A stretch of 64,000 nucleotides of DNA, from positions 22,328 through 86,327 of the forward strand of contig CAYJVT010000001.1 of NCBI GenBank assembly GCA_964373695.1, given 5' to 3'. The notes beneath the pieces are model-generated. The model was not told the DNA's origin and ran no database searches. It worked only from the letters and a program-made list of their open reading frames with translations. Shown one piece after another: positions 2,839 to 64,000 of the stretch. The stretch is from an uncultured archaeon (lineage in GTDB: Archaea > Aenigmatarchaeota > Aenigmatarchaeia > GW2011-AR5). The position numbers and the translations under genes are program-made. Numbering within the stretch: the first letter of the stretch is position 1; each line of letters begins with the position of its first letter.

Positions 2839-3912
2839 CTATCGTGTTACCCTGGAATTTTTTACTATTTCATAAAGCCTTTTTGCCTCGCTCTTCTCAA
2901 AGTGCTTCCTCACCGGGGACAATATTTCATCCAGCGCCTCTGCAGTCTCTTTTTTCAGGTCCAGTGGATGAAGCTCGCCTTTTATGAACTTGTTTTCCAG
3001 TTCTTCGTATGATTGCACTTCAAAATTCCCGCCAAACTTTTCCGGCCTGTATATTGTTCTCGAGACAAATTTCCTCAAGATTATGTATTTCCACATCTCA
3101 AGTATCGGGTTTCCTTCTGTAGTTTTTCCGGGACAATACGCCTTGTTTATTTTTTCTTCTATTTCTTTTTTGGTGTCATGTATGAATATCGCCGTCTGCG
3201 GCTTCGACTTGCTCATCTTGTCTTCAATCCCTGCTGTTTCCTGCCCCATTCTTCCTTTCGAGCCCTGCAATCCCATTAGAAGATGGTGATGGACGCAGAC
3301 TCTCTGGGATCTGCCAATTTTTTTTGACAGTTCCCTTGAGAGTATTGTTGAATGCCTCTGGTCCATTCCAAGCTGCAAGATGTCGGCCTTGAAATAAAAA
3401 GGGTCCCACACCTGCATCATAGGATACAGAAGCTGCGCCGTATATTGCATCTCAGTCTCGTTTCTGCCCATCGTAGGGCTTGCCCTTATAGTTCTTTGTA
3501 CTGTAACATTTTTTGCAATATCAATGACGCCTTTCCAGTAATTCTGGTCTTTTACGGCATCACTAGTCCATAATATTTTTATTTTTTTGGTATCAACGCC
3601 GCATGCTTCCCAGCCTTCGATAAAATACTCGCCTACATTTTTTATGAGTTCCAGGTTGCCGCCCATCTTGTTATTGATGTAAGCAAACCAGTCAGCAATC
3701 CATAGGGTGAAATCTATCTTTGCCTCGAGAAGGTCTTTTATTTTTATCGCGCGCAGAATTCCGCTCCCAAGATGCAAAAATCCGCTGGGTTCGAAGCCGT
3801 CATAAGCCATTGGACTCTGCTTGGTCTCTAAAAGATGTCTTAGGTCTTCCTCTGTAATGACTTCCTCCGTAGGCGGCCTCTTTATCAACTCTAACCGTTC
3901 TTCTATGTCCAT
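2839..3912 (-). CDS. tyrS: Tyrosyl-tRNA synthetase, archaeal type
   Basis: From the internal Met (ATG at 3910-3912) the ORF reads MDIEERLELIKRPPTEEVITEEDLRHLLETKQSPMAYDGFEPSGFLHLGSG... with a KMSKS-like motif (DKMSKSKP). The 83-aa Arg/Ser-rich N-terminal extension in the listed ORF is rejected. Confidence 0.9.
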   Translation of the reverse strand: MDIEERLELIKRPPTEEVITEEDLRHLLETKQSPMAYDGFEPSGFLHLGSGILRAIKIKDLLEAKIDFTLWIADWFAYINNKMGGNLELIKNVGEYFIEGWEACGVDTKKIKILWTSDAVKDQNYWKGVIDIAKNVTVQRTIRASPTMGRNETEMQYTAQLLYPMMQVWDPFYFKADILQLGMDQRHSTILSRELSKKIGRSQRVCVHHHLLMGLQGSKGRMGQETAGIEDKMSKSKPQTAIFIHDTKKEIEEKINKAYCPGKTTEGNPILEMWKYIILRKFVSRTIYRPEKFGGNFEVQSYEELENKFIKGELHPLDLKKETAEALDEILSPVRKHFEKSEAKRLYEIVKNSRVTR

Positions 3913-48442: not shown

Positions 48443-50257
48443 ATGATGATACTATCCGACTACATTATGAAGAGGCTTGTTGAATACGGGGTCAGGCATA
48501 TTTTCACTATCACTGGCGGCGGCGCCATGTACCTTAACGATGCCATGCAGAAATGCAAGGAAATAGAATACATATGTAACCACCACGAGCAAGCGTGCGC
48601 CATGGCCGCGGAAGGCTACTCGAGGGCGTGCGAAAAGATGGCCGTCGTCCAGGTGACGACAGGCCCGGGGGGCACCAATACGGTTACCGGGGTCTTGGGC
48701 CAGTGGACGGACTCCGTGCCAGTATTGTATATCTCCGGCCAGGTGAAGCTGGAGACTTCTGTTGAATCGTGCCTAGATATAGGACTGAGGCAGCTGGGCG
48801 ACCAGGAAGCCAGGATTGTGAAAATAGTGAAGCCAATAACCAAATTCGCTGCTGTCGTAAAGAACCCGGAAGATATCAGGAAACTCCTTGAGAAAGCGAT
48901 ATACATCTGCACACATGGCAGGCCTGGACCTGTCTGGCTTGACATACCGACAAATGTGCAGAGCACGCTGATAGACGAAACAAATCTGGAAGGGTATGAC
49001 GAAAAGGAAGATGAGATGAAGTTCAATGGGGACAGTTTGAAGGAAAACGTAAAGAAGGTAGTTGCGCTTATAAAGGCGTCCAAGAGGCCTGTAATCATAG
49101 CGGGCCGCGGAATAAGGATTTCAGGCTCGCGCGACATTTTCCTGGGCATAGCAGAGAGCATGGGGATTCCAGTCCTGTCCACCCACAACGGCTACGACGT
49201 AATCTATACGGACCATCCTCTGTCAGTAGGGAGGATAGGGATATACGGCGACAGGTCTGGCAACTTTGCGCTGCAGAATTCCGATTTATTGATATCAATA
49301 GGCTCGAGAAACAACGTGAAGCAGGTGAGCTACAACTGGAAATGCTTCGCAAGGGAGGCAAAAAAGGTTTTTGTTGACATAGACGAGTCCGAGCTGAAGA
49401 AGCCTACGATAAGCCCCGATATCGCAATACATTCCGACGCCAAGGATTTTCTTCTGGAGCTCAAATCTCAGATGGCGAAGGAAAAAATGCCTTCTTTCTC
49501 TGAATGGCTTAAATGGTGCATCGAAAGGAAAAAGCGGTATCCTGTGGTACTTCCCGAATATAAAAAGCCGGGAAAGTTTGTCAACCCATATTATTTCAAC
49601 CAGAAGGTCACGGAATGCCTGAAAGAAGACGACATCATTGTGACCGGCGTCGGCACGTCATTCTTTGCTGTCTATCAGTCGGCAATAGTGAAGAAAAACC
49701 AGCGGTTTATATGGAACACCGGATGCTCGGCAATGGGGTACGACCTCCCGGCTGCGATAGGCGCGTGCGTCGCAAGCGGAAGAAAGGACATAATATGCCT
49801 CGCGGGCGACGGGAGCATACAACTGAACATCCAGGAGCTTCAAACTATTTCTTATCACAAAATGCCGATAAAGATTTTCGTCTACAACAACAACGGATAC
49901 GTCTCCATGAGGCAGACGCAGGAGAACTTTTTTGACAAAAGGTACATAGGATGCGACAAGAACTCTGGAGTAGGATTCCCGGACATCAGAAAAGTGGCAG
50001 CCGCCTACAACATACAGTCCGAAATAATAGAAAGTCATGAAGACATGGAGAGAAAAATAATGAAAGTTCTGGGGCACAAGGGACCAATTGTATGCGAAGT
50101 CGTGATGGACCCTGACTGCAGGTTCCTGCCGAAGATAACGTCGAGAAAGGTTAACGGCACTTTCGTTTCGAGCCCGCTGGAAGACATGTCCCCATTCCTT
50201 GAGCGCGAGGAACTCAAGGACAACATGATAATACCCATGTGGGAAGAAAGCAAGTAG
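48443..50257 (+). CDS. Thiamine-diphosphate-dependent acetolactate-synthase-like enzyme (YerE-like carboligase candidate)
   Basis: ~604 aa with TPP_N (...GVRHIFTITGGGAMYLNDAM...VQVTTGPGGTNTVTGV...) and a TPP-binding C-domain (...GDGSIQLNIQEL...). Confidence 0.7.
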   Translation: MMILSDYIMKRLVEYGVRHIFTITGGGAMYLNDAMQKCKEIEYICNHHEQACAMAAEGYSRACEKMAVVQVTTGPGGTNTVTGVLGQWTDSVPVLYISGQVKLETSVESCLDIGLRQLGDQEARIVKIVKPITKFAAVVKNPEDIRKLLEKAIYICTHGRPGPVWLDIPTNVQSTLIDETNLEGYDEKEDEMKFNGDSLKENVKKVVALIKASKRPVIIAGRGIRISGSRDIFLGIAESMGIPVLSTHNGYDVIYTDHPLSVGRIGIYGDRSGNFALQNSDLLISIGSRNNVKQVSYNWKCFAREAKKVFVDIDESELKKPTISPDIAIHSDAKDFLLELKSQMAKEKMPSFSEWLKWCIERKKRYPVVLPEYKKPGKFVNPYYFNQKVTECLKEDDIIVTGVGTSFFAVYQSAIVKKNQRFIWNTGCSAMGYDLPAAIGACVASGRKDIICLAGDGSIQLNIQELQTISYHKMPIKIFVYNNNGYVSMRQTQENFFDKRYIGCDKNSGVGFPDIRKVAAAYNIQSEIIESHEDMERKIMKVLGHKGPIVCEVVMDPDCRFLPKITSRKVNGTFVSSPLEDMSPFLEREELKDNMIIPMWEESK

Positions 50258-50306
50258 GACATTCTTCAAAAAATAAAGTCAAGCTTAAATAACTTGCCAA
50301 TTTATT

Positions 50307-50924
50307 ATGAAAATGTTTGATGTATCCGACAGGCTCGTTACGGAAAGAAGGGCGCTTTTCAGCTACAGTCCTGTGCTTTTCAGAACTGGCGAATCTTATG
50401 GCCGTTCGATGGAGCAAGTGCCTGAAGGATTCGCTGCATCCTCATTGCGACATGAAGGGTACATAATACAGCAGATGAGAGAAGATGTCGGGCCCCTTTC
50501 TTACGAGCCGTATTCAGAAGTCTTCGGCATCGGAAGCAGCGAGCGAGCGAGGCTCATGCTATCCACAAGGCTTCGCGTTCCGCACGGCCATGACCCGGAG
50601 AAATACGAAACACGGGGCGGGAGAAGACACTGGAGAAGGATGCTTGTGGAAGGAGACAGCGAGACAGGTGTGATGGTTCCTGAAAGCGGCGTTGTCTATC
50701 GGTTCGACAAAGAGTCGGGACTTCCGGAAGTCACCGGACCGCTTGCAGAAAGTTTGTATCCGTTTTCGGTAAGATTCAATTTCAGGCCGTTGTGGAGTGA
50801 CTCGGTTATTGTAATAAAAGATGCCGGCCCTGACACAGACAAAGGCCTAGTAATAGAAGCGTCCAGAAGCACGCGCTACAGGCATCCGGACCACTCTGTA
50901 AGGCTTGTAAGAGAACTGGCCTAA
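50307..50924 (+). CDS. Hypothetical protein
   Basis: 205-aa ORF and the only long ORF in this interval. No recognisable motif. Confidence 0.35.
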   Translation: MKMFDVSDRLVTERRALFSYSPVLFRTGESYGRSMEQVPEGFAASSLRHEGYIIQQMREDVGPLSYEPYSEVFGIGSSERARLMLSTRLRVPHGHDPEKYETRGGRRHWRRMLVEGDSETGVMVPESGVVYRFDKESGLPEVTGPLAESLYPFSVRFNFRPLWSDSVIVIKDAGPDTDKGLVIEASRSTRYRHPDHSVRLVRELA

Positions 50925-51090
50925 ATCTTTCTGCATTTGGCTTTGTAGAAATGCTCTAAAGTTCAGCTAGAATCGACAAGGATATATAAATTAACGCAAA
51001 ATCCACTCCTACCAAAACCTGTAATAAACAGAGTGATTTATTAACTCCTTAATTTGACAGGAAAGAAATTCAAGGATAATCATAGGGTTT

Positions 51091-51711
51091 CTACAGAGCC
51101 CTGCATTTCACTATGTAGCCTTCACAGAAGAACTCGTTCTTGAATGGCATCTCAAACCTGAAGAACGGTATCATTGGCCTGTGGTAGTGCACCTCTTCTA
51201 TTTCAAACATGCCATGAAGCATCTTCTTCAGGTACCACAGGAAAACAGGCGTAACGTGCACTTTCTTTTCCGGTTCGTCGGCAAAGAAGCCGTGGAAGCC
51301 GCCAGTGAAAAGGAAGTACAGTTTCTGGTACCAGTTGTTCGGGTTCGGGGTTGAGATTATGGCTTGGCCGCCTTTTCTTAGCACCCTATGAAACTCTTTT
51401 ATCGCGGTATATGGGCTGTCAAGGTGCTCCAGATTCTCTATTGAAAATATGAAGTCGAATGAATTGTCATTGAAAGGTATTTTCTCGTTGAGGTCGGCTT
51501 TCTTGAATTCCACTCCATCGGCAAAGAATTTTTCCTTCTCTATATCGACTCCATGGAGGTTCTTGTACCCCATCTTCTGCAGTTCATTGAGAAGCGCCCC
51601 CTCGCCGCAGCCGGCATCGAGTACCGCGGCTTTCTTGGCTATATTATTTCTCAGAAATATCTCCATGACCTTTTCATGAAGTTTCGGCGTGGCAATAGGC
51701 TTCGGTTCCAT
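51091..51711 (-). CDS. Class I SAM-dependent methyltransferase
   Basis: ...AAVLDAGCGEGALLNEL... (motif I) and ...DFIFSIENLEHL... (motif II/post I). Confidence 0.75.
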   Translation of the reverse strand: MEPKPIATPKLHEKVMEIFLRNNIAKKAAVLDAGCGEGALLNELQKMGYKNLHGVDIEKEKFFADGVEFKKADLNEKIPFNDNSFDFIFSIENLEHLDSPYTAIKEFHRVLRKGGQAIISTPNPNNWYQKLYFLFTGGFHGFFADEPEKKVHVTPVFLWYLKKMLHGMFEIEEVHYHRPMIPFFRFEMPFKNEFFCEGYIVKCRAL

Positions 51712-51789
51712 TAATTATCCTCTGATTATAGAAGATTAATCAAACGTTTAAAAAGAATGAATAATAGGGGTTTTACTGGTCGTATTGTC

Positions 51790-52452
51790 TTACTGCAATC
51801 CGTTCACTTCTATCAGGTCTCCAACGCCATCGTATCTGGGACGGGAGCCTACATTGTCAAGCCCTTCAAAATCATGTCGCCAGTCAAAGCTGATGTTGAA
51901 TTTTCCGTGTCCTTTAAGCGGGTATGTGCGCCCTACAAATCTATCATCACTAGAGGCGCTGCTGGGCTGAAAAAAGAATGAAACCTGGCCAGGCGGCACG
52001 CCTTTTTTCTCCAGCCTTCTCATCGCCTCTTCTTTGCTGTCAACTGTCTCGAGCGGTATGAGTGTTTCAAAGGTCTCGCATCCGCGTGTTTCTTTACGGA
52101 ACCATCCGTCTTCTGTGAGCACATACCAGCCGCTCCTCGGCGCCCACGTATCAATGACTGCTTCTCTTTCTGTACCGGTATTGAGAACATACTTCAAATG
52201 AATCCTGCCTCTTCTGTCGGACCCGTTTTTGCGTATTCTTGCCGCATCCATTGTTATCTCAGACCAATATCTCATTTCTCTGCCTCTTTCATCGTCCGTA
52301 CGGCATATGGGATTGTCAAAATTGTTGTGGCTATAGCCTTTCCATAAATTGGCTCCTGAATCCGCCCGCTCAGAAAGTGTTCTGTACGGCAAAGAAAATC
52401 CGTCCACAAAATTTGCAACAGCCAGTCCATTTCCGAGAGAAATATATTGCAT
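51790..52452 (-). CDS. Hypothetical protein
   Basis: 220-aa ORF. The structured repeat element lies just upstream. No family recognised. Confidence 0.4.
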   Translation of the reverse strand: MQYISLGNGLAVANFVDGFSLPYRTLSERADSGANLWKGYSHNNFDNPICRTDDERGREMRYWSEITMDAARIRKNGSDRRGRIHLKYVLNTGTEREAVIDTWAPRSGWYVLTEDGWFRKETRGCETFETLIPLETVDSKEEAMRRLEKKGVPPGQVSFFFQPSSASSDDRFVGRTYPLKGHGKFNISFDWRHDFEGLDNVGSRPRYDGVGDLIEVNGLQ

Positions 52453-52518
52453 AGATTTTTTAGGTGGTAAATTTATTTAAAAAACATGAAAAACTTTTAT
52501 CTTTGTTCTAGGCGTTCA

Positions 52519-52611
52519 TATAGTGCTCCAAGAAAACAATCATAATTATTAGTTTTCTTGGCACTATATGTGAACCAAATAAGTTATATCCTGTTTATTT
52601 ATTTGGTTCAC
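52519..52611. repeat. Structured ~95-bp repeat element, copy 1 (palindrome TATAGTGCTCCAA...TTGGCACTATA plus hairpin GTGAACCAAATAA...TTATTTGGTTCAC)
   Basis: An imperfect inverted repeat at 52519-52537 / 52552-52568, and a perfect 13-bp inverted repeat at 52570-52582 / 52599-52611 abutting the GT4 stop codon. It is homologous to 56601-56695 in inverted orientation. Confidence 0.7.
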
Positions 52612-53675
52612 TATAGAAGCGATTTATATATTTTGTAAACTTTTTCCGACACTTCGCCGTCCCTGAACTGCGTTGTGTGCTTTATTGCTTTCTTTCCAAG
52701 AGACTTTCTTTTTCTGCTGTCGTCGATGAGATTCTCTATCTTCTCTTTCATGTCTTTCCAGTCCCCGTAATCAACTAGGACTCCGCCTTCGCCAACTGTC
52801 TCAGGCACGGCACCGACGCGTGTGCTCACTACGGGCGTGCCGCACATCCCTGCCTCGGCAAGCACATATCCGAACGACTCGTATTTCGTTGGTGCCACCA
52901 ATATGTCCATGGAATTCAGGTGCGAGGCTATGTTCTTTGGGGCAAGTTCTCTGTGGAATTTGAACCTGCCGTTCTTTCTTATCTCGCTCTCAAGTTCGCC
53001 GAACCCTATGAAAACAAACTCGACGTCTTTCCTCTCCTCCTGTATCTTGCCGAAAATCTCGGCCGCTACCAGAGCCCCTTTCCACGGAAGCATGGGGCCT
53101 ATGAAACCTATGCGTGTTTTTCCGCTTTCCTTCCTGTCAGGATAGAATGTTCTGCTGTCGACCGGCGGCGGCACGACATCGAAGTTCCCTTTCACGTACC
53201 TGGAAAGCCTTGTCCTCTCGTCTTTGTTGAAGGCCAGCGTCTTTTTTGAGAATTTCAGGAGCGGCCATCCCTGAAAAATCCCGTACTGCCAAGAAAGCAT
53301 CCTCTTTCCTGTGGTGTAAATGGGGGGGTGGAAGGCCGGGGTGAAAATATGCGGGCTCTTCATCCTTATCGACGATACGAAGCCGGCCGTTGCCGGAAAG
53401 TATCCGTAATGGAACGAATGAAATATGTCAGGCCTGGATCTGGGCTCCGTCAGCATCTTTCTGGCGAAAAGAAAGCTTTTCATTCCGGCTTCGAATCTTT
53501 TCACGCTTATGTTGCCCTCTTTTTCGTATGTTTTCTGGGGGCCGGAAACTATGGAACAGACGCTTATTTCGTCGCCTTTTTCAGCCATATTTCTCGCTAG
53601 GAAATACGCAGCATTGGATATGCCGAATTTCGAATGGCCGAGGCTGAACATTGTGGTGAACATAGATACTTTCAT
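52611..53675 (-). CDS. Glycosyltransferase family 4
   Basis: ...ESFGYVLAEAGMCGTPVVSTRVGAVPETV... GT4 signature. Confidence 0.8.
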   Translation of the reverse strand: MKVSMFTTMFSLGHSKFGISNAAYFLARNMAEKGDEISVCSIVSGPQKTYEKEGNISVKRFEAGMKSFLFARKMLTEPRSRPDIFHSFHYGYFPATAGFVSSIRMKSPHIFTPAFHPPIYTTGKRMLSWQYGIFQGWPLLKFSKKTLAFNKDERTRLSRYVKGNFDVVPPPVDSRTFYPDRKESGKTRIGFIGPMLPWKGALVAAEIFGKIQEERKDVEFVFIGFGELESEIRKNGRFKFHRELAPKNIASHLNSMDILVAPTKYESFGYVLAEAGMCGTPVVSTRVGAVPETVGEGGVLVDYGDWKDMKEKIENLIDDSRKRKSLGKKAIKHTTQFRDGEVSEKVYKIYKSLL

Positions 53676-54586
53676 TCCATCATCACCTTGGAAAAAACAT
53701 CCGAATAAAGTTTTGCCTGGTTCTTCCAGTCATGTTTTTTCGCCACCTCGACGGCATCTTTACCCTTCACATTATAGACGCCTTTCCTGATGGGGAATAT
53801 CTCTAAATTAGACTCCATGCTGGCGATTATGTTCAGACCGCATGCAGCCGCCTCCATAGGCACCAGCGGATGTCCCTCGAATTTCGAAAAAAACAGCAGA
53901 GTGCTGGCAGCCCTGTATAAATCTGGCATATCCTCATGCCTCATCATGCCAAGATACCTGATGCCGTCAGAATCCTGGCCTTCGACGCCGACTATTGTTA
54001 TCACGCCTTTGTGCCTCTTGGCGTATTCTATGGCACCATCAAGTCCTTTCAGCGCCGGGTTGTCGCCGACCCAGATAAAACCCCTGCCCCTTTTCGTGGG
54101 GCTGAAAAATCCCGTATCAACGCCGTTATGCACCACTGTTATCTTCTCTGAATCTATCCTATATTCCTGGATTATCTGGCTTTTGACGCTGTTGGAAACC
54201 GCTATTATATGGTCCGACTTCCTCAATAGCCTTCCCTGGAAGAACACCGCCATCCTGGACTTTATTTTCTCTGTTGCTGTACGCGGGGGCGATATCTTGT
54301 AGTAGTTTTTCCACAGTCCGTGGCATGTGTACACCGTCTTTTTCATGAAAGGTCGGAAGGTGCAGAAATATCCGTGAGTGTCATGAATATTGACGATGTC
54401 GCATCCGCTTGCCGCGACCCTCAGAGGTGCCGCCAGCATCAATAAAATATTTTTCACGGCGCTCCTTGAGCCGGAAACCGTGTGCCCCCCGACATATCTC
54501 CTTATGTTTCTCACGACGTTCGGCGTGCCGCCATTATACCTGTCCGGATTGGAATCGAGCACATAGCAGACCTGCATTTTATACAC
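53672..54586 (-). CDS. Glycosyltransferase family 4
   Basis: ...FEGHPLVPMEAAACGLNIIAS... with an N-terminal GT-B domain. Confidence 0.8.
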   Translation of the reverse strand: MYKMQVCYVLDSNPDRYNGGTPNVVRNIRRYVGGHTVSGSRSAVKNILLMLAAPLRVAASGCDIVNIHDTHGYFCTFRPFMKKTVYTCHGLWKNYYKISPPRTATEKIKSRMAVFFQGRLLRKSDHIIAVSNSVKSQIIQEYRIDSEKITVVHNGVDTGFFSPTKRGRGFIWVGDNPALKGLDGAIEYAKRHKGVITIVGVEGQDSDGIRYLGMMRHEDMPDLYRAASTLLFFSKFEGHPLVPMEAAACGLNIIASMESNLEIFPIRKGVYNVKGKDAVEVAKKHDWKNQAKLYSDVFSKVMME

Positions 54587-54675
54587 TATTAAGCATACCC
54601 ATTTAAACCGTAATTGATTAGAACAGTCTTGGAAAGAATTACGGCTTTAAAGCCGTAGTATAATACTCTTCTGAA

Positions 54676-55623
54676 ATGAAAAGGAAGAAAATCAGCGTCG
54701 TCATAACAACGTACAACAGGGCGCCGCAGCTTCTCAAATGTGTGAATTCTGTCATTAACCAGAATTATCCCAGAAACATGTATGAAATAATAGTCGTGAA
54801 CGACTGCTCGACAGACAGCACGAAAAGTGTGATGGATGGTATTTCGAGGAGCCATAAAAATATTCGTGTATTGTCGCACAGCGAAAATAGGGGCGAGGCC
54901 GGAGCCCGCAACACCGGAATAAAGGCCGCCGGAGGCGATGTAATAGCGTTTATTGACGACGACTGCATTGCCGGGAAGGGATGGCTCTCTTCCATTAACC
55001 ATTCGTTTGGTAAGAACGTGGACGGAGTCGAGGGTAAAACATTCGCTGTGGGTGTTAAGGGGCCTTTTGACAATTATGTGGAGAATCTTCACGGCGGGAA
55101 ATACATGACATGCAACATGTCGTACAGGGCACGGCTCATAAAGGGAATAAGATGCGATGAGCGCCTTCTATATGCAAACAGGGTGGACAGCGACCTCGCA
55201 TTCTCCGTCATTGAAAATGGTGGGAAGATGGTTTTCAGCAAAGAAGCTTCCGTGGAGCATTCAATAACGCGCGGCTCCTTTTGCTCAAAGCTGCGCAGAA
55301 AGAAGTTCTTCATGAACGACGCCCTGCTCTATAAGAAGCATCCGGCTCTGTATAAGAGGGATATAAGATTCCCCTTCGAGAAATTCACGCCGTTTTACAT
55401 GCTCTTTGCAGTAGCCTCGCTCATAAGCCCGCTTTTCCTCGCAGGGCTTTTCTTGGTGGCGGCGGCCGAGCTCGTTGACAGGGGATGGCGCGCCGGTCCC
55501 GCGGACTTCGTTAAATTTGCCGTTCTCCAGTCCGTCGGTTCCTTTGTAATAATAGCCTCCGTTTTATATGGGTGCTGGAAATACGGCTCTTCTCCGAGAA
55601 TCCTCCTCCCTTTTAAATCTTGA
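54676..55623 (+). CDS. GT2 glycosyltransferase with C-terminal transmembrane segments
   Basis: KISVVITTYNRAPQLLKCVNSV...VNDCSTDST...FIDDDC (DxD), and a hydrophobic C-terminus. Confidence 0.8.
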   Translation: MKRKKISVVITTYNRAPQLLKCVNSVINQNYPRNMYEIIVVNDCSTDSTKSVMDGISRSHKNIRVLSHSENRGEAGARNTGIKAAGGDVIAFIDDDCIAGKGWLSSINHSFGKNVDGVEGKTFAVGVKGPFDNYVENLHGGKYMTCNMSYRARLIKGIRCDERLLYANRVDSDLAFSVIENGGKMVFSKEASVEHSITRGSFCSKLRRKKFFMNDALLYKKHPALYKRDIRFPFEKFTPFYMLFAVASLISPLFLAGLFLVAAAELVDRGWRAGPADFVKFAVLQSVGSFVIIASVLYGCWKYGSSPRILLPFKS

Positions 55624-55638
55624 CTTTATAGGAAATAC

Positions 55639-56586
55639 ATGCGCGCCCTAATAACAGGCATCAGCGGCTTTGTAGGCTCACACCTGGCCGAGCATCTCAT
55701 AGAAAATGGAGTTGAAGTATTCGGCAGCATAAGGTGGAGGAGCAGGCTGGACAACATAGTGCACATAAAAGACAGGATAAAGCTCATAGAAACAGACATG
55801 AGAGATTCGCACAGCGTTGTCGGTCTCATAAAGGACACAGAACCTGATTTGATATTTCATCTGGCTGCCCAGTCTTTCGTTCCGACAAGCTGGAACGCGC
55901 CCCAGGACACCATATACACCAACGTGATAGGGACGGTGAATCTTCTGGAGGCGGTGCGCTCGTCAAAGATCGACCCGAAGATACACATAGCAGGCAGCAG
56001 CGAGGAGTACGGGCTCGTAACCCAGGATGAGGTGCCGATAAAGGAGACCAACCAGCTGAGGCCGCTGAGCCCTTACGGCGTCAGCAAAGTGGCGGAGGAA
56101 ATGCTTGGATTCCAGTACTTCCGCTCTTATTCTCTGAGGAGCGTTATAACCCGCGCGTTCAACCATTCTGGCCCTAGAAGGGGGGACGTCTTCGTCGAGT
56201 CCAATTTCGCGAAGCAGATAGCTGACATAGAGAACGGGAAAGAGCCTGTCATATATGTGGGAAACCTGGAAGCCCAGCGGGACTTCACCGATGTCAGGGA
56301 TGTTATAAAGGCTTATGTGATGGCGCTGGAAAAGTGCAGGCCAGGGGAGACGTACAACATATGCTCCGAGAAGGCCGTAAGAATAAAGGACATGCTGGAT
56401 ATGCTTCTTTCCATGTCCGGGAAGGAGATATCAGTCGAAAAGGACGCAAAAAGGATGAGGCCTTCGGACGTCGACCTGCTCGTAGGCGACTGCTCAAAGT
56501 TCAGGAAAGCGACAGGATGGAAGCCCGAAATTCCCCTGAAAAAAACGCTCGAAGACCTTCTGGACTACTGGCGGCAAAAGGCTTAA
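55639..56586 (+). CDS. NAD-dependent nucleotide-sugar 4,6-dehydratase/reductase (GDP-mannose 4,6-dehydratase-like extended SDR)
   Basis: MRALITGISGFVGSHLAEHLIENGVEVFGSIRW... with YGVSK. Confidence 0.7.
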   Translation: MRALITGISGFVGSHLAEHLIENGVEVFGSIRWRSRLDNIVHIKDRIKLIETDMRDSHSVVGLIKDTEPDLIFHLAAQSFVPTSWNAPQDTIYTNVIGTVNLLEAVRSSKIDPKIHIAGSSEEYGLVTQDEVPIKETNQLRPLSPYGVSKVAEEMLGFQYFRSYSLRSVITRAFNHSGPRRGDVFVESNFAKQIADIENGKEPVIYVGNLEAQRDFTDVRDVIKAYVMALEKCRPGETYNICSEKAVRIKDMLDMLLSMSGKEISVEKDAKRMRPSDVDLLVGDCSKFRKATGWKPEIPLKKTLEDLLDYWRQKA

Positions 56587-56600
56587 ATCGCTCCCATTTT

Positions 56601-56695
56601 TATAGTGAAACAAGAAAATAATACCGACATTATAGCTTGTTTCACATATAGTGCCCAATGATATAATATCCTTTTTATTTCATTGGAGCACTATA
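56601..56695. repeat. Structured ~95-bp repeat element, copy 2 (hairpin GTGAAACAAG...CTTGTTTCAC plus palindrome TATAGTGCCCAATGA...TCATTGGAGCACTATA), inverted relative to copy 1
   Basis: The stems are conserved with copy 1 (TATAGTGCTCCAA, GGCACTATATGTGAAMCAA, TTGKTTCACTATA) while the loops differ. It ends 10 nt before the ATG at 56706 and contains ctatataa. Confidence 0.7.
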
Positions 56696-56705
56696 TAACT
56701 ATCAT

Positions 56706-58518
56706 ATGCTTAAATCTCGCGAAGTGATTCTGTCGGCATTGCTGTGCGCCGTGATATTTTCATTGCCTAATTTTCTTATGCCTGTCTTGAGGGGTGACGG
56801 CGCATATACCCCGCTTCTCGTGAAGGACGTCAATACATATGCAGTAGACCAGACCATGCTCTATGCTCCGGGCATAAGGGACGTGATGGACGGGCACCTC
56901 ATCGCCAATGATCCGGCCATCTTTGAAAACAAGGACAGGCTGTCGTTTCTGGCGCCGCTCTTCCCGACTCTGTTTCTTGGGATTATGTCGGTGCTTGCTG
57001 GTTCCGTTCAGGCGACATTTATGCTGGGGAGCTTCGTATTTCCGTTCATAGCATTTATTCTGGTGTATTTCCTCTTCTACGAGGCCACGAAAAGCAGGAA
57101 CGCCTCTTTGCTGTCGTCTTTCTGCGTTTCTCTGGGATTCAATTTCATAGCCAATATGCCGGTGACGGCGGAAACCATACGGTTTTACTTGGGGAGGCTT
57201 TTTCTGAATCCTATAGAGCCCATAAACTATCTTGGGAGGCTGCCGCACATACAGTTTACCTTCATCTTGCTGCTCCTTTCGCTGATATTCATCTACCTTA
57301 CGCTTGAAAGGAAGAAGGTATCGTATGCAGCAGCAGGAGGCATAATGCTTGGGGTGCTTTTCTATTCGTATTTCTATTACTGGACTGCGATATTGGCCGC
57401 GGTAGGGATTCTGTTCCTTGTTTCCATGGCGAAAAGGGACTTCAGAACAGCCGGAAACATGGTGGTGATATCCGTTGTGGGCGCTGTTCTGGCAGCGCCG
57501 TACATAGCGAATCTTTTTGTCATGGCATCATCAGAGAGTTATGCAGACATAGGGAGCAGGCTGGGGCTTGAGTCCGGATTTGAAGTGCTCCTGCCCGTGA
57601 AATACCTGGCCGTTTACCTGATATTCGCCGGGCTGACCAGAAAAAGGAATAATTTTTTCTGGCTTGTGTCGTCGGCTTTCATGGCCGGGATCGCCCTTAT
57701 CATCATGCCTGTGCTGACGGGCTTCGGCATACAGAGCAGGCACTACGACACGACTCTTCTGGCGCCGCTTTCTGCCATGGCTCTGGTTTACGCATTCAGG
57801 GAGCTCTCCATAGGCGACCATAAAAGGCCTGTTCTGTCGCAGATGTCCGATTTTATAAGGACCAATTCCAGGAATATAACGCTTGTGGTTGCGCTGTTTC
57901 TTGTCGTTGTCAGCTTCTACTCGCAAGCCGCTTACGCATTCAATGCTTACAGGGCTTTCGGGCTCAAAGGCGAATATAAAGAGGTTTACGACTGGCTTAA
58001 CGAAAACACCGAAAAAGACAGCGTCGTTTTTACTATGAGCGTCGAGCAGAACTCCCTTATACCTGTCTATACGCACAACAATGTTTTTATTCCAAATGGA
58101 TTCTTCTCTCCATATTCAGACGAGGAGATACTCGAGAGGCTTTTCATTGTCTACAGGCTCTTCGGCGTGACACCGGAATACCTGGAGGGCCTTATGGAAA
58201 ACGGGGATTCGGCAAGAAGGTACAACGGGATGCGGGAGAGGCTTGAGGAGTCCGACCAGGCCCTGTTTGAAAGCGCATACTGGAACCTTTACCCGTTCCA
58301 CGAAAAGTTCATCAATGAAAGGATAATTCAGTCGGAACTCCTGGGGGAGATGGACAAAGCCGGGATATACAAGGCCATGCTCGACTACTACAGAAACTTC
58401 ACGCCGGACATGGAGAAATACAGGATTGATTATATGATGGCCGGCGAATATGAAAGAAGCGTCTCCGATTTTGAGCCGCCGTCGGGGTTCAGGCTTCTGT
58501 GGTCGAATGAAAAGATTT

Positions 58519-58538
<20 letters not shown>
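56706..58538 (+). CDS. Large polytopic membrane protein, GT-C-like, paralog B
   Basis: 610 aa: ...LPNFLMPVLRGDGAYTPLLVKDVNTYAVDQT... and ...DWLNENTEKDSVVFTMSVEQNSLIPVYTHNNVFIP... parallel 20515..22248 throughout. Confidence 0.6.
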
Positions 58539-62479: not shown

Positions 62480-64000
62480 TTACTTTCCGGCGAGAAGGCT
62501 CTTTATGACCATCTTCGCGGCGCGCGGATAGTCCCTCTTCTTGGTGAACTTCAGGTTTGCCAGATAGAAAGCTTTTACCCTCTCGTCCGCCGGGTATTCG
62601 GGTGTGTCGAATACGGGCTTCGGCCTGGCGCCTATGTGGAACCCTTCCTTCCAGTCCCTCAGCATCCTCACGTTCGGGTCGGCCCTCACCTGGTTCCATA
62701 CCTCTGTCCCTGGGTAGGGCACAAGTATTCCCCACGAAGCCGATTCAAGCCCGACCTTTTTCACGAATTCCATCGAGCGTTTGTCAGTCTCGTAGGTGCT
62801 TCCGACCAGACCAAGTATGAAGAATCCGTGGACCTTGAGGCCGGCTTTCTTTGCAATTGCTATGCCATGCTCCACGTCCTCGAGCTTCTCGCCCTTGTTT
62901 ATCTTCCTGAATACCTCGGGGTCGCCGCTTTCCACCCCTATCGACACCGAGTAGCATCCGGCCTTCACCATGAGCTCGCACAGCTCGTCATCAAGCCTGT
63001 CCGCCCGTATGCCGTTGGGGCATGTCCATTTCATGTCCAGCCCTTCGTCGATGAAGAACCTGCATATGTCCTTTGCCCTGTCCATCAGGAGCGTGAAGTT
63101 GTCGTCAAGCACCTTGAATTCCGTGCATCCGTATTTCTCCTGGGCATATCTCAGCTCATTCATTATGTTCTCGCCAGAGCGCGTCCTGAACTTCCTGCCT
63201 ATTACTGTCGGGACATTACAGTTGTTCACAAGGAAGCCGTTTGCCGTGTAGGTGTGGTCTTCTTCTACTTCTATGTTATATACAATGCCGGTGAAATCCT
63301 CGGTATCAGCGCTTTCTACCGGGAAGTATACGGCATTTTCATCTCTTATCTCAATTTCTGTTCTTCCTGCATCCTCTGCAATTTCTATTCCAAAAATGCT
63401 CTCAGATAGTCTTTTCACATCCCTTTTTGACTTGAAACTAAGATGATAATTGTAGCCGCAGGAGTCTATTTTCCTGCCGTTTATTTCGCTGCTACCAGCG
63501 TTGTTTTTCTGGAGGCTGGGCGAAAACCCTATTTTTTGGGCGATTATGAAAAACTGGTAGGCGAGGGAATGCGATACAGTTGAAGCCTTTATCATCTTTT
63601 TGCCTTCATATCTGACTATTCCGCCATCTCCGAGTATCCAGCCCTTTAGAAGCCCTTCTAAAGTCACCGCGTCAGATTTCATTATGATTTCAGGTATTGA
63701 TTTTTTGCCTGAACCTGAGCCAAAGAGCTTTTCGAAAAGCATTGAAATCGGGGCATTTGAAACATAAACTCTTGTTACACTATTTTGATTCACAATTAGT
63801 GGATCTAAATCAAAAATATTCTTTATCAGGTATTTTACATCTTCTATGTATGCAATTTCATCATTTCTGAATGTCCATGATATTGTATAGCTATTTGGCC
63901 TTCTTTTGCTCTTTGTTACCGAACCCTCTGCCAGATAATATCCAAAAAGCCTGGACAAATCTTTTGTTATAGGTATTTTTGAAGGGATTCCTTTAGAGAG
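62480..64000 (-). CDS. B12-binding/radical SAM enzyme (paralog of 22341..23804) interrupted by an intein; partial, continues beyond window end
   Basis: C-terminal extein (62480-63220): CNVPTVIGRKFRTRS...GVESGDPEVFRKI... is a radical SAM barrel. Upstream, in frame and open to position 64000, lies the intein sequence. Confidence 0.75.
   Translation of the reverse strand, partial: LSKGIPSKIPITKDLSRLFGYYLAEGSVTKSKRRPNSYTISWTFRNDEIAYIEDVKYLIKNIFDLDPLIVNQNSVTRVYVSNAPISMLFEKLFGSGSGKKSIPEIIMKSDAVTLEGLLKGWILGDGGIVRYEGKKMIKASTVSHSLAYQFFIIAQKIGFSPSLQKNNAGSSEINGRKIDSCGYNYHLSFKSKRDVKRLSESIFGIEIAEDAGRTEIEIRDENAVYFPVESADTEDFTGIVYNIEVEEDHTYTANGFLVNNCNVPTVIGRKFRTRSGENIMNELRYAQEKYGCTEFKVLDDNFTLLMDRAKDICRFFIDEGLDMKWTCPNGIRADRLDDELCELMVKAGCYSVSIGVESGDPEVFRKINKGEKLEDVEHGIAIAKKAGLKVHGFFILGLVGSTYETDKRSMEFVKKVGLESASWGILVPYPGTEVWNQVRADPNVRMLRDWKEGFHIGARPKPVFDTPEYPADERVKAFYLANLKFTKKRDYPRAAKMVIKSLLAGK
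63221..64000 (-). mobile_element. Intein with LAGLIDADG homing-endonuclease domain (C-terminal splice junction ...ANGFLVNN|C), partial
   Basis: DOD motifs LFGYYLAEGSV and LLKGWILGDGGI. The C-terminal Blocks F/G read IVYNIEVEEDHTYTANGFLVNN followed by the +1 Cys. That Cys aligns with the third Cys of the rSAM CxxxCxxC motif of the paralogs. Confidence 0.75.

Follow-up and report, generated by a model that had tools for sequence, protein, structure and literature searches.

We examined a 64-kb stretch of DNA, referred to below as the window, in which two inverted copies of a structured repeat bracket a divergent block of four genes encoding glycosyltransferases and a sugar-nucleotide dehydratase-like protein (Table 1). 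Both copies share the layout TATAGTG, hairpin A, CACTATATGTG, hairpin B, CACTATA. The GTG/CAC triplets form the stem feet of both hairpins, which are 36 nt each in copy 1 and 35 nt each in copy 2. Folding of either strand is predicted to give two hairpins in both copies (-22.7 to -23.9 kcal/mol, z -8.8 to -10). They are inverted on the chromosome, yet they have the same polarity relative to the local genes, the order at each being inner-gene stop, hairpin B, hairpin A, outer-gene start. A sequence-only reading had described a structured inverted pair of ~95 bp here. The pair proved to be real, with the sequences as quoted and strong folds (z about -9 to -10). The limits given for copy 2 (56601-56695) stood, but copy 1 ends at 52615 and not at 52611, the terminal TATA having been omitted.

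Table 1. Coordinates of the two repeat copies, their parts and the enclosed genes in the window
Feature	Position	Strand	Basis
Copy 1, double-hairpin element (A then B on + strand)	52519..52615	+	sequence; CM 92.7 bits, E 3.6e-16; DNA fold -23.4 kcal/mol, z -8.8
Copy 1 hairpin A: GTG-C-(TC bulge)-CAAGAAAAC ... GTTTTCTTG-G-CAC	52523..52564	+	fold, family alignment, pair counts
Copy 1 central TATAT linker between hairpins; CD-module insertion site in other genomes	52565..52569	.	sequence, comparison with other loci
Copy 1 hairpin B: GTGAACCAAATAA ... TTATTTGGTTCAC, 13-bp perfect stem	52570..52611	+	fold
TAG stop of GT4 gene (52611-53675, minus), made by the element's terminal CAC/TATA box	52611..52613	-	sequence, gene calls
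Enclosed genes: GT4, GT4 (minus), GT2, SDR/GDP-mannose-dehydratase-like (plus); context, outside element	52616..56600	.	Pfam
Copy 2, double-hairpin element (A then B on minus strand)	56601..56695	-	sequence; CM 97.7 bits; DNA fold -22.8 kcal/mol, z -9.5
Copy 2 hairpin B: GTGAAACAAG ... CTTGTTTCAC; GTCGGTATT motif in loop	56605..56645	-	sequence, alignment, fold
Copy 2 hairpin A: GTG-C-(T bulge)-CCAATGA ... TCATTGG-G-CAC; GGATAT in loop	56651..56691	-	sequence, alignment, fold

The earlier claim that the sequence shared by the two copies goes beyond chance was confirmed. We found exactly two occurrences of TATAGTGCTCCAA in the window, both at element copies, and exact matches to GCACTATATGTGAA at the two copies only, a count reached by 0 of 100 shuffles. 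The spaced pattern TATAGTG-N(15-45)-CACTATA gave 2 matches in the window vs 0.00 expected. When the 64-kb window was searched with a covariance model (CM) with filters off, the two copies were recovered (92.7 and 97.7 bits) and nothing else scored above 14 bits. The two copies are 68% identical, share no exact stretch longer than 14 nt and belong to different subfamilies. As each other's relative they rank 17th or 24th of 28, each being nearer to copies in other genomes.

To define the family, the pattern TATAGTG-N(25-50)-CACTATATGTG-N(25-50)-CACTATA was run against 185,579 species genomes. It returned 27 further copies at 26 loci, with fewer than one chance match expected for the three-box pattern by our own estimate. 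All 27 were found in about 9 MAGs, which are Aenigmatarchaeota or unclassified archaeal. A CM search of those loci added ~14 more diverged copies, bringing the family to 29 strict copies (window pair included) and ~14 diverged ones, 83-105 bp long, in about 10 MAGs; the comparison sequences were MAGs or short-read contigs throughout. The single pattern match among 2.9 million viral contigs had no hairpins and scored 18.9 bits, and we therefore treat it as a chance-level control. With one copy in an unbiased 20.7-kb locus of another MAG and two in the window, copy density is roughly one per 20-30 kb, and we estimate tens of copies per genome. The element is non-coding and has a GC content of 0.27 vs 0.50 for the genome. 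Its ends are sharp, the flanks outside the terminal boxes being unrelated between copies. T occupies position -1 in 21 of the 29 copies (72%), so that the left flank reads T followed by TATA; the right flank does not mirror it (p = 0.017). Subfamilies are genome-specific (hairpin A identity 0.78 within genomes vs 0.63 between). Elsewhere the copies are intergenic, in either orientation, beside unrelated housekeeping genes (aaRS, eIF2-gamma, eRF1, PCNA, FttA and L7Ae/S27e, among others), and pairs 2-5 kb apart are common in both relative orientations. They show no tie to gene function or to the direction of transcription: counting gene stop codons up to 30 nt away, 7 copies have one beside hairpin A and 7 beside hairpin B. 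The search for further copies that had been called for thus yielded a family in Aenigmatarchaeota that is intergenic and not scattered in coding regions. In this DPANN phylum it constitutes a new family of MITE/REP-like hairpin-dimer repeats.

The family unit of ~97 bp reads (T)TATA, hairpin A, TATAT, hairpin B, TATA. Its two hairpins, which are related, are arranged as direct repeats, with GTG...CAC-footed stems of 11-14 bp and loops of about 13 nt. A bulged T in hairpin A is kept across the family, and a motif, TCRGGAT(A/T), is conserved in the loops of both hairpins. The loops had earlier been called unrelated, which holds for the window pair but not for the family. In the family alignment 97.7% of the cells in stems are paired, vs 85.1% in shuffles and 37-50% in slid controls. 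Both sides had changed in 90 cells vs 29 expected, and compensatory changes were seen in 10 stem pairs. The GTG/CAC feet also covary, becoming GTC/GAC at locus L006 and ATG/CAT at L041. These strong compensatory changes bear out the proposal of selection for secondary structure. The terminal inverted repeat (TIR) is TATAGTG/CACTATA, perfect over 7 bp; further in, A-type and B-type arms differ systematically (CTNCAAG vs AANCAA). A host function would fit equally well with the conservation of loops and bulge across species and with the near-perfect stems of diverged copies.

Near-identical copies with different flanks, at non-homologous intergenic sites, were found both inside one MAG (L014 with L020a, L007 with L022) and across MAGs (L015, L017, L018). 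At L020 a whole element, bounded by TA, splits the loop of a B-type hairpin, and in silico removal of the element plus one TA restored a normal hairpin with the B-loop motif. In some copies the central TATA carries an inserted CD module of about 50 nt with two GC-rich triloop hairpins, placed at the first TA in L023 and at the second TA in L020. For the nested copy and the CD inserts, TA duplication accounts for the data as well as insertion 3' of TA/TATA without duplication does, the putative duplicated TA being part of the conserved TATA. Element positions differ between the syntenic regions compared. In the S27e-L7Ae gap, the element is present in L008 and absent from the syntenic site in L009, a comparison confounded by the loss of the entire intergenic region there; no clean empty site was recovered for either window copy. 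In three samples of the window's population, k=31 Logan contigs have ends at 52547 and 56628 and starts at 52587 or 52589. If the assembler behaves at repeats as we suppose, these breaks would put the limits of the repeat at 52518, 52616-52618 and 56599, coinciding with the element termini. Reassortment of A and B modules among the copies counts against simple copy-and-paste, which does not predict it. Truncated copies and mosaic clusters are also present in the family. No transposase of any kind was found in 59 of the 60 called window ORFs (at least 100 aa) or in ~40 ORFs next to copies in other MAGs. Neither tnpA/tnpB nor a longer element with the same ends, nor solo ends flanking an ORF, turned up in the roughly 330 kb of element-bearing sequence examined.

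We conclude, with a probability of about 0.65, that the copies represent a double-hairpin repeat that is non-coding, present in many copies and specific to the lineage Candidatus Aenigmatarchaeota, most likely a miniature non-autonomous mobile element akin to MITEs, IS200/IS605-derived palindromic elements and REP/BIME. A MITE-like element was among the options first put forward and is the best fit. Such an element would insert at TA/TATA in AT-rich DNA, either duplicating TA or entering 3' of (T)TATA without duplication. It would be mobilised in trans by an enzyme encoded elsewhere, which would recognise the folded hairpins by their foot, bulge and loop, probably as single-stranded DNA. In the window, two unrelated copies would have landed in intergenic gaps at the outer ends of the divergent four-gene block, with copy 1 coming to supply the GT4 stop codon. 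Terminator, insulator or promoter effects on the neighbours, if any, would be a by-product.

The alternative that survives best, though we consider it unlikely, is a host-serving structural element like bacterial REP/BIME, acting at gene boundaries, possibly spread by transposition and kept by host selection. It might be a bidirectional terminator, a 3'-end mRNA stabiliser, a binding site for supercoiling or chromatin proteins, or the carrier of a central TATA promoter. About half of the copies lie 5-27 nt past a stop codon, and stems, bulged T and loop motifs are conserved over about 10 species, diverged copies included. Near two-fold symmetry at the level of the boxes means that the element could act in either orientation. 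At L008 a canonical TATA box lies upstream of it and the Shine-Dalgarno sequence of the L7Ae operon downstream, so it must be transcribed there. That 97-bp inserts are tolerated in compact DPANN genomes is also notable, the gene gaps in the window being mostly below 100 nt. However, syntenic regions do not share element positions, copies show no preference among tandem, convergent and divergent gaps, and only 2 of about 60 window gene boundaries carry an element. The nested and truncated copies and mosaic clusters resemble insertion debris, and archaeal transcription usually terminates via oligo-T tracts rather than at hairpins. The terminal TATA had been proposed as a promoter for the adjacent start; in copy 2 and L008 only 10-13 nt separate it from the start codon that follows, too close for an archaeal TATA box serving that start. 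A promoter role of the central box or the loops is possible.

A doubtful variant is an archaeal counterpart of REP/REPIN-RAYT, in which a structure-specific enzyme (HUH or other), encoded in single copy and possibly domesticated, would keep vertically inherited hairpin repeats in streamlined DPANN genomes over long periods. The enzyme would read foot, bulge and loop, and the A, B and CD hairpins would assemble into BIME-like mosaics. If true, Archaea would have their first system of this type, implying that the repeats serve the host at gene boundaries. We found no RAYT in the element-bearing loci examined, and RAYT subclasses have been reported only in Bacteria (PMC6006769).

We think it very unlikely that the two hairpins function as RNA, whether as a family of small structured non-coding RNA genes or as a cis-regulatory RNA. 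The loops are conserved and covariation is strong, both of which would suit an RNA; so would the CM scores (95-110 bits on the forward strand vs 40-55 bits on the reverse), which give the element a defined polarity. G-U is normally tolerated in genuine RNA helices, but in the stems G-U-type cells (7) were no commoner than A-C-type cells (5). Both strands therefore stay Watson-Crick, as expected of DNA hairpins and not of a single RNA strand. Rfam 15 gave no match at the gathering threshold in the window, relaxed E-values giving only sub-threshold generic hairpin (miRNA-like) hits, and inspection of the element revealed no C/D or H/ACA boxes, pseudouridylation pocket or K-turn. There is no conserved promoter or flank outside the element and its orientation is random relative to neighbouring genes; the nested and truncated copies likewise speak against an RNA gene.

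It is highly improbable that the inverted pair forms the functional ends of the glycosyltransferase block, as the sequence-only reading had suggested (cassette TIRs, phase-variation inversion sites, exchange sites or paired operators): the copies do bracket the block exactly, MITE pairs in bacteria can mobilise the DNA between them, and short-read contigs break at both elements so that the orientation of the block in the population is not read directly, but two copies have a 50% prior of being inverted, the 40 or more copies elsewhere in about 10 MAGs lie beside unrelated genes, the pairs among them being direct as well as inverted, and the window copies differ as described above. The composition check proposed for an acquired origin of 52.6-56.6 kb came out ordinary (GC 0.494 for the enclosed 4 kb vs 0.496 for the window; tetranucleotide distance at the median), and the block is one piece of a ~55-kb glycan biosynthesis locus. 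It assembles as a single contig in another sample. We also considered an invertible or phase-variable segment as such, with contigs breaking at the elements; the 68% identity and the lack of a recombinase or transposase domain in the window ORFs scanned (59 of the 60 called, at least 100 aa) speak against it.

For annotation of the window the lesson is thus negative: the glycosyltransferase block as a demarcated mobile or invertible cassette is not supported. DPANN archaea have tightly packed genomes of roughly 1 Mb that are thought to be poor in repetitive DNA. The family would mean that small palindromic mobile DNA can thrive even there. The element is also a sequence marker for a clade of Aenigmatarchaeota, may explain recurrent assembly breaks in their MAGs and offers a tractable lead to a hairpin-recognising enzyme.

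Among known systems, integron attC sites are likewise imperfect palindromes, found just after cassette ORFs, whose structure is kept more than their sequence. In contrast, neither an integrase nor R''/R' core sites (RYYYAAC/GTTRRRY) were found here, and our element is dispersed by housekeeping genes in both orientations rather than arrayed after cassettes. In bacterial REP/BIME/REPIN, as here, imperfect palindromes of 35-43 nt lie outside genes and bear a short conserved tag at the foot. Both kinds form dimers and mosaics with other small motifs, preserve their stems by compensatory change, number tens of copies per genome and have a vertical, lineage-specific distribution. REP tags are defined as GTAG or CGTC (PMC3733652), whereas the foot here is TATA plus GTG, and the A-B unit is a direct dimer rather than the inverted dimer of a REPIN. 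Inverted arrangements are a minority, consisting of B-reverse/B-forward pairs and of the CD module; REPIN-like two-fold symmetry is seen in the CD module only.

Prokaryotic MITEs (Sulfolobus SM1-SM4; TA-targeting, IS630/Tc1-mariner-derived) resemble the element in being small (below ~500 bp), without coding capacity, AT-rich, multi-copy, dispersed in intergenic DNA and strongly self-folding, with a short TIR, TA at both ends, nested insertions and genome-specific subfamilies. Here, however, the two ends diverge beyond 7 bp, and the interior consists of two direct hairpins with conserved loops and bulge, features not kept in ordinary TIR-MITEs. Among about 100 ORFs in about 330 kb we found no parent IS whose ends match. 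Archaeal MITEs have been reported from Sulfolobus, Halobacterium, Haloquadratum and Desulfurococcus, not from DPANN (PMC10969869). The ends of IS200/IS605 and of their gene-less derivatives, the palindrome-associated transposable elements (PATEs), differ in that our hairpins abut the element ends, the foot directly adjoining the presumed cleavage site, in that a short TIR is present and, for IS200/IS605, in the lack of tnpA/tnpB noted above. In Archaea the only TnpA-Y1 subclass known is that of the IS200-type Y1 transposases (PMC6006769). The T at -1 and the asymmetric flank are compatible with, but not diagnostic of, the oriented, duplication-free insertion 3' of a fixed tetra- or pentanucleotide that marks this group. 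Like the left- and right-end hairpins of that group, the two subterminal hairpins of the element are related and point the same way on one strand. A conserved extrahelical T in a stem is also shared, as is strict Watson-Crick maintenance, which fits single-stranded DNA hairpins.

Both repeats quoted in the sequence-only reading are present in the window, but the end assigned to copy 1 fell 4 nt short and missed the terminal TATA. Each copy runs in the order TATAGTG, 36/35 nt, CACTATATGTG, 36/35 nt, CACTATA. The GTG/CAC triplets form the feet of both stems, giving hairpins A and B, in that order, bounded by TATA on the outside and separated by TATAT. Folded as single-stranded DNA, either strand of each copy gave two hairpins (-22.7 to -23.9 kcal/mol, z -8.8 to -10). 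The blocks common to the two copies are far above chance: TATAGTGCTCCAA and GCACTATATGTGAA had exact matches in the window only at copies 1 and 2, and the observed count of the latter was reached in 0/100 shuffles. TATAGTG-N(15-45)-CACTATA matched twice against 0.00 expected. The remaining four CACTATA heptamers of the window were isolated; the three inspected all lay in coding sequence. A covariance model of the element, run over the 64 kb with filters off, recovered copies 1 and 2 and no others.

Coordinates of the two window copies and of the CD-type modules (small hairpin repeats found at other loci)
Feature	Locus	Position	Strand	Basis
Copy 1	window	52519-52615		sequence
Copy 2	window	56601-56695	minus	sequence
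CD-type module	L023	4343-4398		
CD-type modules	L020	1986-2133, 756-802		
CD-type module	L026	5133-5185		
CD-type module	L027	7177-7228		

We scanned 185,579 genomes, one per species, with a three-box pattern that left both hairpins free. It gave 27 matches in 26 loci, where by our own estimate fewer than one was expected by chance. All 27 lay in MAGs of Candidatus Aenigmatarchaeota or of unclassified archaea (nine at most in any one MAG), and the free segments folded as hairpins in every match. The covariance model, built on 29 copies, added about 14 more diverged copies within the pattern-matched loci. It found none in 77 kb of distant relatives' loci and one in an unbiased 20.7-kb locus from another MAG of the same samples. 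That copy, taken with two in the 64-kb window, suggests a density of about one per 20-30 kb, or tens per genome of ~1 Mb. Copies occur between genes, whether these are tandem, convergent or divergent, and beside unrelated housekeeping genes (aminoacyl-tRNA synthetases, eIF2-gamma, eRF1, PCNA, FttA, ribosomal proteins, transporters, kinases). Stop codons occurred within 30 nt as often on the A side (seven copies) as on the B side (seven). The pattern had a single match in 2.9 million viral contigs, which lacked hairpins and scored 18.9 bits; we took it as a chance-level control and dropped a virus association. The literature searched held nothing on Aenigmatarchaeota. The element is a MITE/REP-like double-hairpin repeat family, specific to this DPANN phylum and undescribed as far as we could find.

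Its structure is under constraint. The 26 consensus pairs were 97.7% paired, compared with 85.1% in column shuffles and 37-50% in slid controls. Compensatory changes were found in 10 pairs, and cells altered on both sides numbered 90, where shuffles gave 29. In diverged copies the GTG/CAC feet covary as well (GTC/GAC in L006, ATG/CAT in L041), leaving the TATA punctuation as the one part that is truly fixed across the family. In hairpin A the first stem pair is always followed by a bulged T. The loops had been described as unrelated, an impression that came from two copies; family-wide they are conserved, loop A approximating ATTCAGGATATTA and loop B CATGTCGGGATTC. TCRGGAT(A/T) is common to both, so that A and B are variants of a single hairpin design, set in the same orientation. 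Independent single-hairpin units were rejected: in a hairpin scan, practically every GTG...CAC hairpin belonged to an A-B pair or a fragment of one. Model scores of 95-110 bits on the forward strand and 40-55 bits on the reverse give the element a polarity.

The best-supported reading is that the element is probably a non-autonomous, hairpin-dimer mobile element. It would insert at TA or TATA of AT-rich intergenic DNA and would be moved in trans by an enzyme encoded elsewhere that recognises the folded hairpins. Flanks beyond the terminal boxes are unrelated between copies, with T at position -1 in 21/29 and A or T at +1 in 24/29 (asymmetry p = 0.017). Near-identical copies occupy non-homologous sites both within one MAG (L014 and L020a; L007 and L022) and across MAGs (L015, L017, L018), and hairpin A identity is 0.78 within genomes against 0.63 between them. 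A and B variants also reassort, the A of L014 matching L026 and its B matching L020a. At L020 a complete element splits the loop of a reversed B-type hairpin; taking out the element plus one TA restores a 12-bp stem whose loop has the B motif. A host function of the element at gene boundaries is a serious rival to mobility, or an add-on to it.

Insertion sites were also compared between relatives. The divergent S27e/L7Ae gap holds an element in L008 and none at the syntenic site of L009, which lacks the whole gap and so offers no clean empty site. The L008 gap (920-1130) is 208 nt long, with a TATA box, the element and a Shine-Dalgarno sequence. At L009 3300-3320 the two genes are directly adjacent, almost without a spacer, and TTG has to serve as start codon for each; the arrangement reflects a deletion or a collapsed assembly, or else promoters that lie inside the coding regions. 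A metagenome scan with the 610-aa protein beside copy 2 returned only 24-28% relatives, their loci devoid of elements. The homologue search for the 220-aa protein beside copy 1 gave an identical protein and 42% relatives in other gene context, with no orthologous empty site. Pfam searches of the 59/60 window ORFs and ~40 copy-flanking ORFs of other MAGs showed no transposase, integrase or recombinase, and no solo TATAGTG/CACTATA boxes flanking an ORF were found.

Four longer copies (L023, L020, L027, L026) carry an insert of ~50 nt in the central TATA, where L023 has it at the first TA and L020 at the second. This CD module consists of two GC-rich triloop hairpins (C-GAA-G, C-TTC-G), symmetric about TGTACA and with CAAGCAG/CTGCTTG ends. 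CD-type modules also occur alone, outside the element; the window has none. They often carry the motif GCGAAGC, and d(GCGAAGC) is a classically hyperstable DNA mini-hairpin, which again points to DNA-level folding. A separate stretch at L025 (~3590-3880) has tRNA-like ends (GGGCCCGTAGCTCAGTT ... GGGAGTTCGATTC ... CTCGGGCCCA) with long structured inserts between them. ARAGORN made no tRNA call there; the stretch may represent a tRNA gene that is split by several introns or disrupted in some other way.

Copy 1 has the stop of a GT4 gene (52611-53675, minus) at one end and the start of the 220-aa gene (51790-52452, minus; no Pfam match) at the other; copy 2 is likewise flanked by an SDR gene's stop (55639-56586, plus) and by the start of the 610-aa gene (56706-58538, plus). 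The copies are inverted on the chromosome, yet in the direction of local transcription both read stop, B, A, start. The TAG stop of the GT4 gene (52613-52611) is itself built from the terminal box of copy 1.

A family of non-coding RNA genes is unlikely. G-U-type cells (7) were as rare as A-C-type cells (5), so these counts showed no asymmetry by which to assign a strand. Watson-Crick pairing is thus kept on both strands, a pattern more in keeping with DNA hairpins or duplex symmetry than with one functional RNA strand. No known RNA identity emerged: the window had no match in an Rfam gathering scan, relaxed Rfam scans of copies 1 and 2 gave only sub-threshold generic hairpin matches, a tRNA scan found none, and visual inspection revealed no C/D, H/ACA or K-turn motifs.

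The sequence-only reading was right that the repeats are real and non-random, but its main interpretation, that they are the functional ends of a four-gene glycosyltransferase cassette (GT4, GT4, GT2, SDR) or of an invertible switch, is not supported. The copies are 68% identical to each other. Their closest relatives are L011 for copy 1 (84%) and L020b for copy 2 (83%), the partner ranking 17th and 24th of 28; they are not a matched pair. Elsewhere, pairs 2-5 kb apart are both direct and inverted, and any two copies have an even chance of being inverted to each other. The enclosed 4 kb has a GC content of 0.494 (window 0.496) and a median tetranucleotide distance, and the sole mildly deviant stretch (49-55 kb) is centred outside the block, so horizontal acquisition was rejected. 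No integrase, invertase or transposase domain was present among the 59/60 window ORFs. Replication-origin ORB boxes and integron attC sites were also considered, but the number and dispersal of the copies spoke against both.

By Pfam (59/60 non-overlapping ORFs called), ~8.8-62 kb of the window is a single glycan or cell-surface biosynthesis locus of ~55 kb, a big investment for a DPANN genome. It holds (~8800-62150) at least seven SDR epimerase/dehydratases, seven nucleotidyltransferases and about ten glycosyltransferases (GT1/GT2/GT4), with a flippase, DegT, UDP-glucose dehydrogenase, PMT_2, carbamoyltransferase and B12-radical SAM enzymes. Positions 49000-55000 show a mild GC dip (0.46 against 0.50) and the largest tetranucleotide deviation of the window, centred on genes left of copy 1 (50307-52452), namely one methyltransferase and two proteins without Pfam matches. 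A 492-aa radical SAM protein (62480-63958, minus) carries a LAGLIDADG_3 homing-endonuclease-like domain (residues 102-187) ahead of its radical SAM core (residues 247-398); the former domain may be an intein or endonuclease insertion.

Logan contigs (k=31) from three sequencing runs carried the window genes at 99.9-100% identity. They stopped at 52547, started at 52587 or 52589 and stopped at 56628, which places repeat boundaries at 52518, 52616-52618 and 56599, 1-3 nt from the element termini. We infer that the window copies have 31 nt or more in common with other loci of that genome or community. One contig, L037, is exactly the four-gene block; as contigs break at both elements, the orientation of the block in the population is unreadable. 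Flip-flop inversion of the loop was rejected as the cause, the breaks lying ~10 nt past the expected branch start. The family is a systematic source of contig fragmentation in these MAGs (window, L001, L002, L036-L039).

The element resembles several known systems. Its direct, related hairpins, conserved bulge and loops, asymmetric flank and strict Watson-Crick upkeep are IS200/IS605 (HUH)-like; its 7-bp terminal inverted repeat and TA ends recall TA-targeting MITEs, and its clusters bacterial BIMEs. Unlike REPs, it has no GTAG/CGTC tags. Membership of none of these families is established, because neither a transposase nor a parent IS turned up, the REP tags are absent and target duplication is ambiguous. 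RAYT/REP systems have been reported from Bacteria only, and the Y1 enzymes reported in Archaea are of IS200 type only (PMC6006769). Archaeal MITEs are known from Sulfolobus, Halobacterium, Haloquadratum and Desulfurococcus (PMC10969869).
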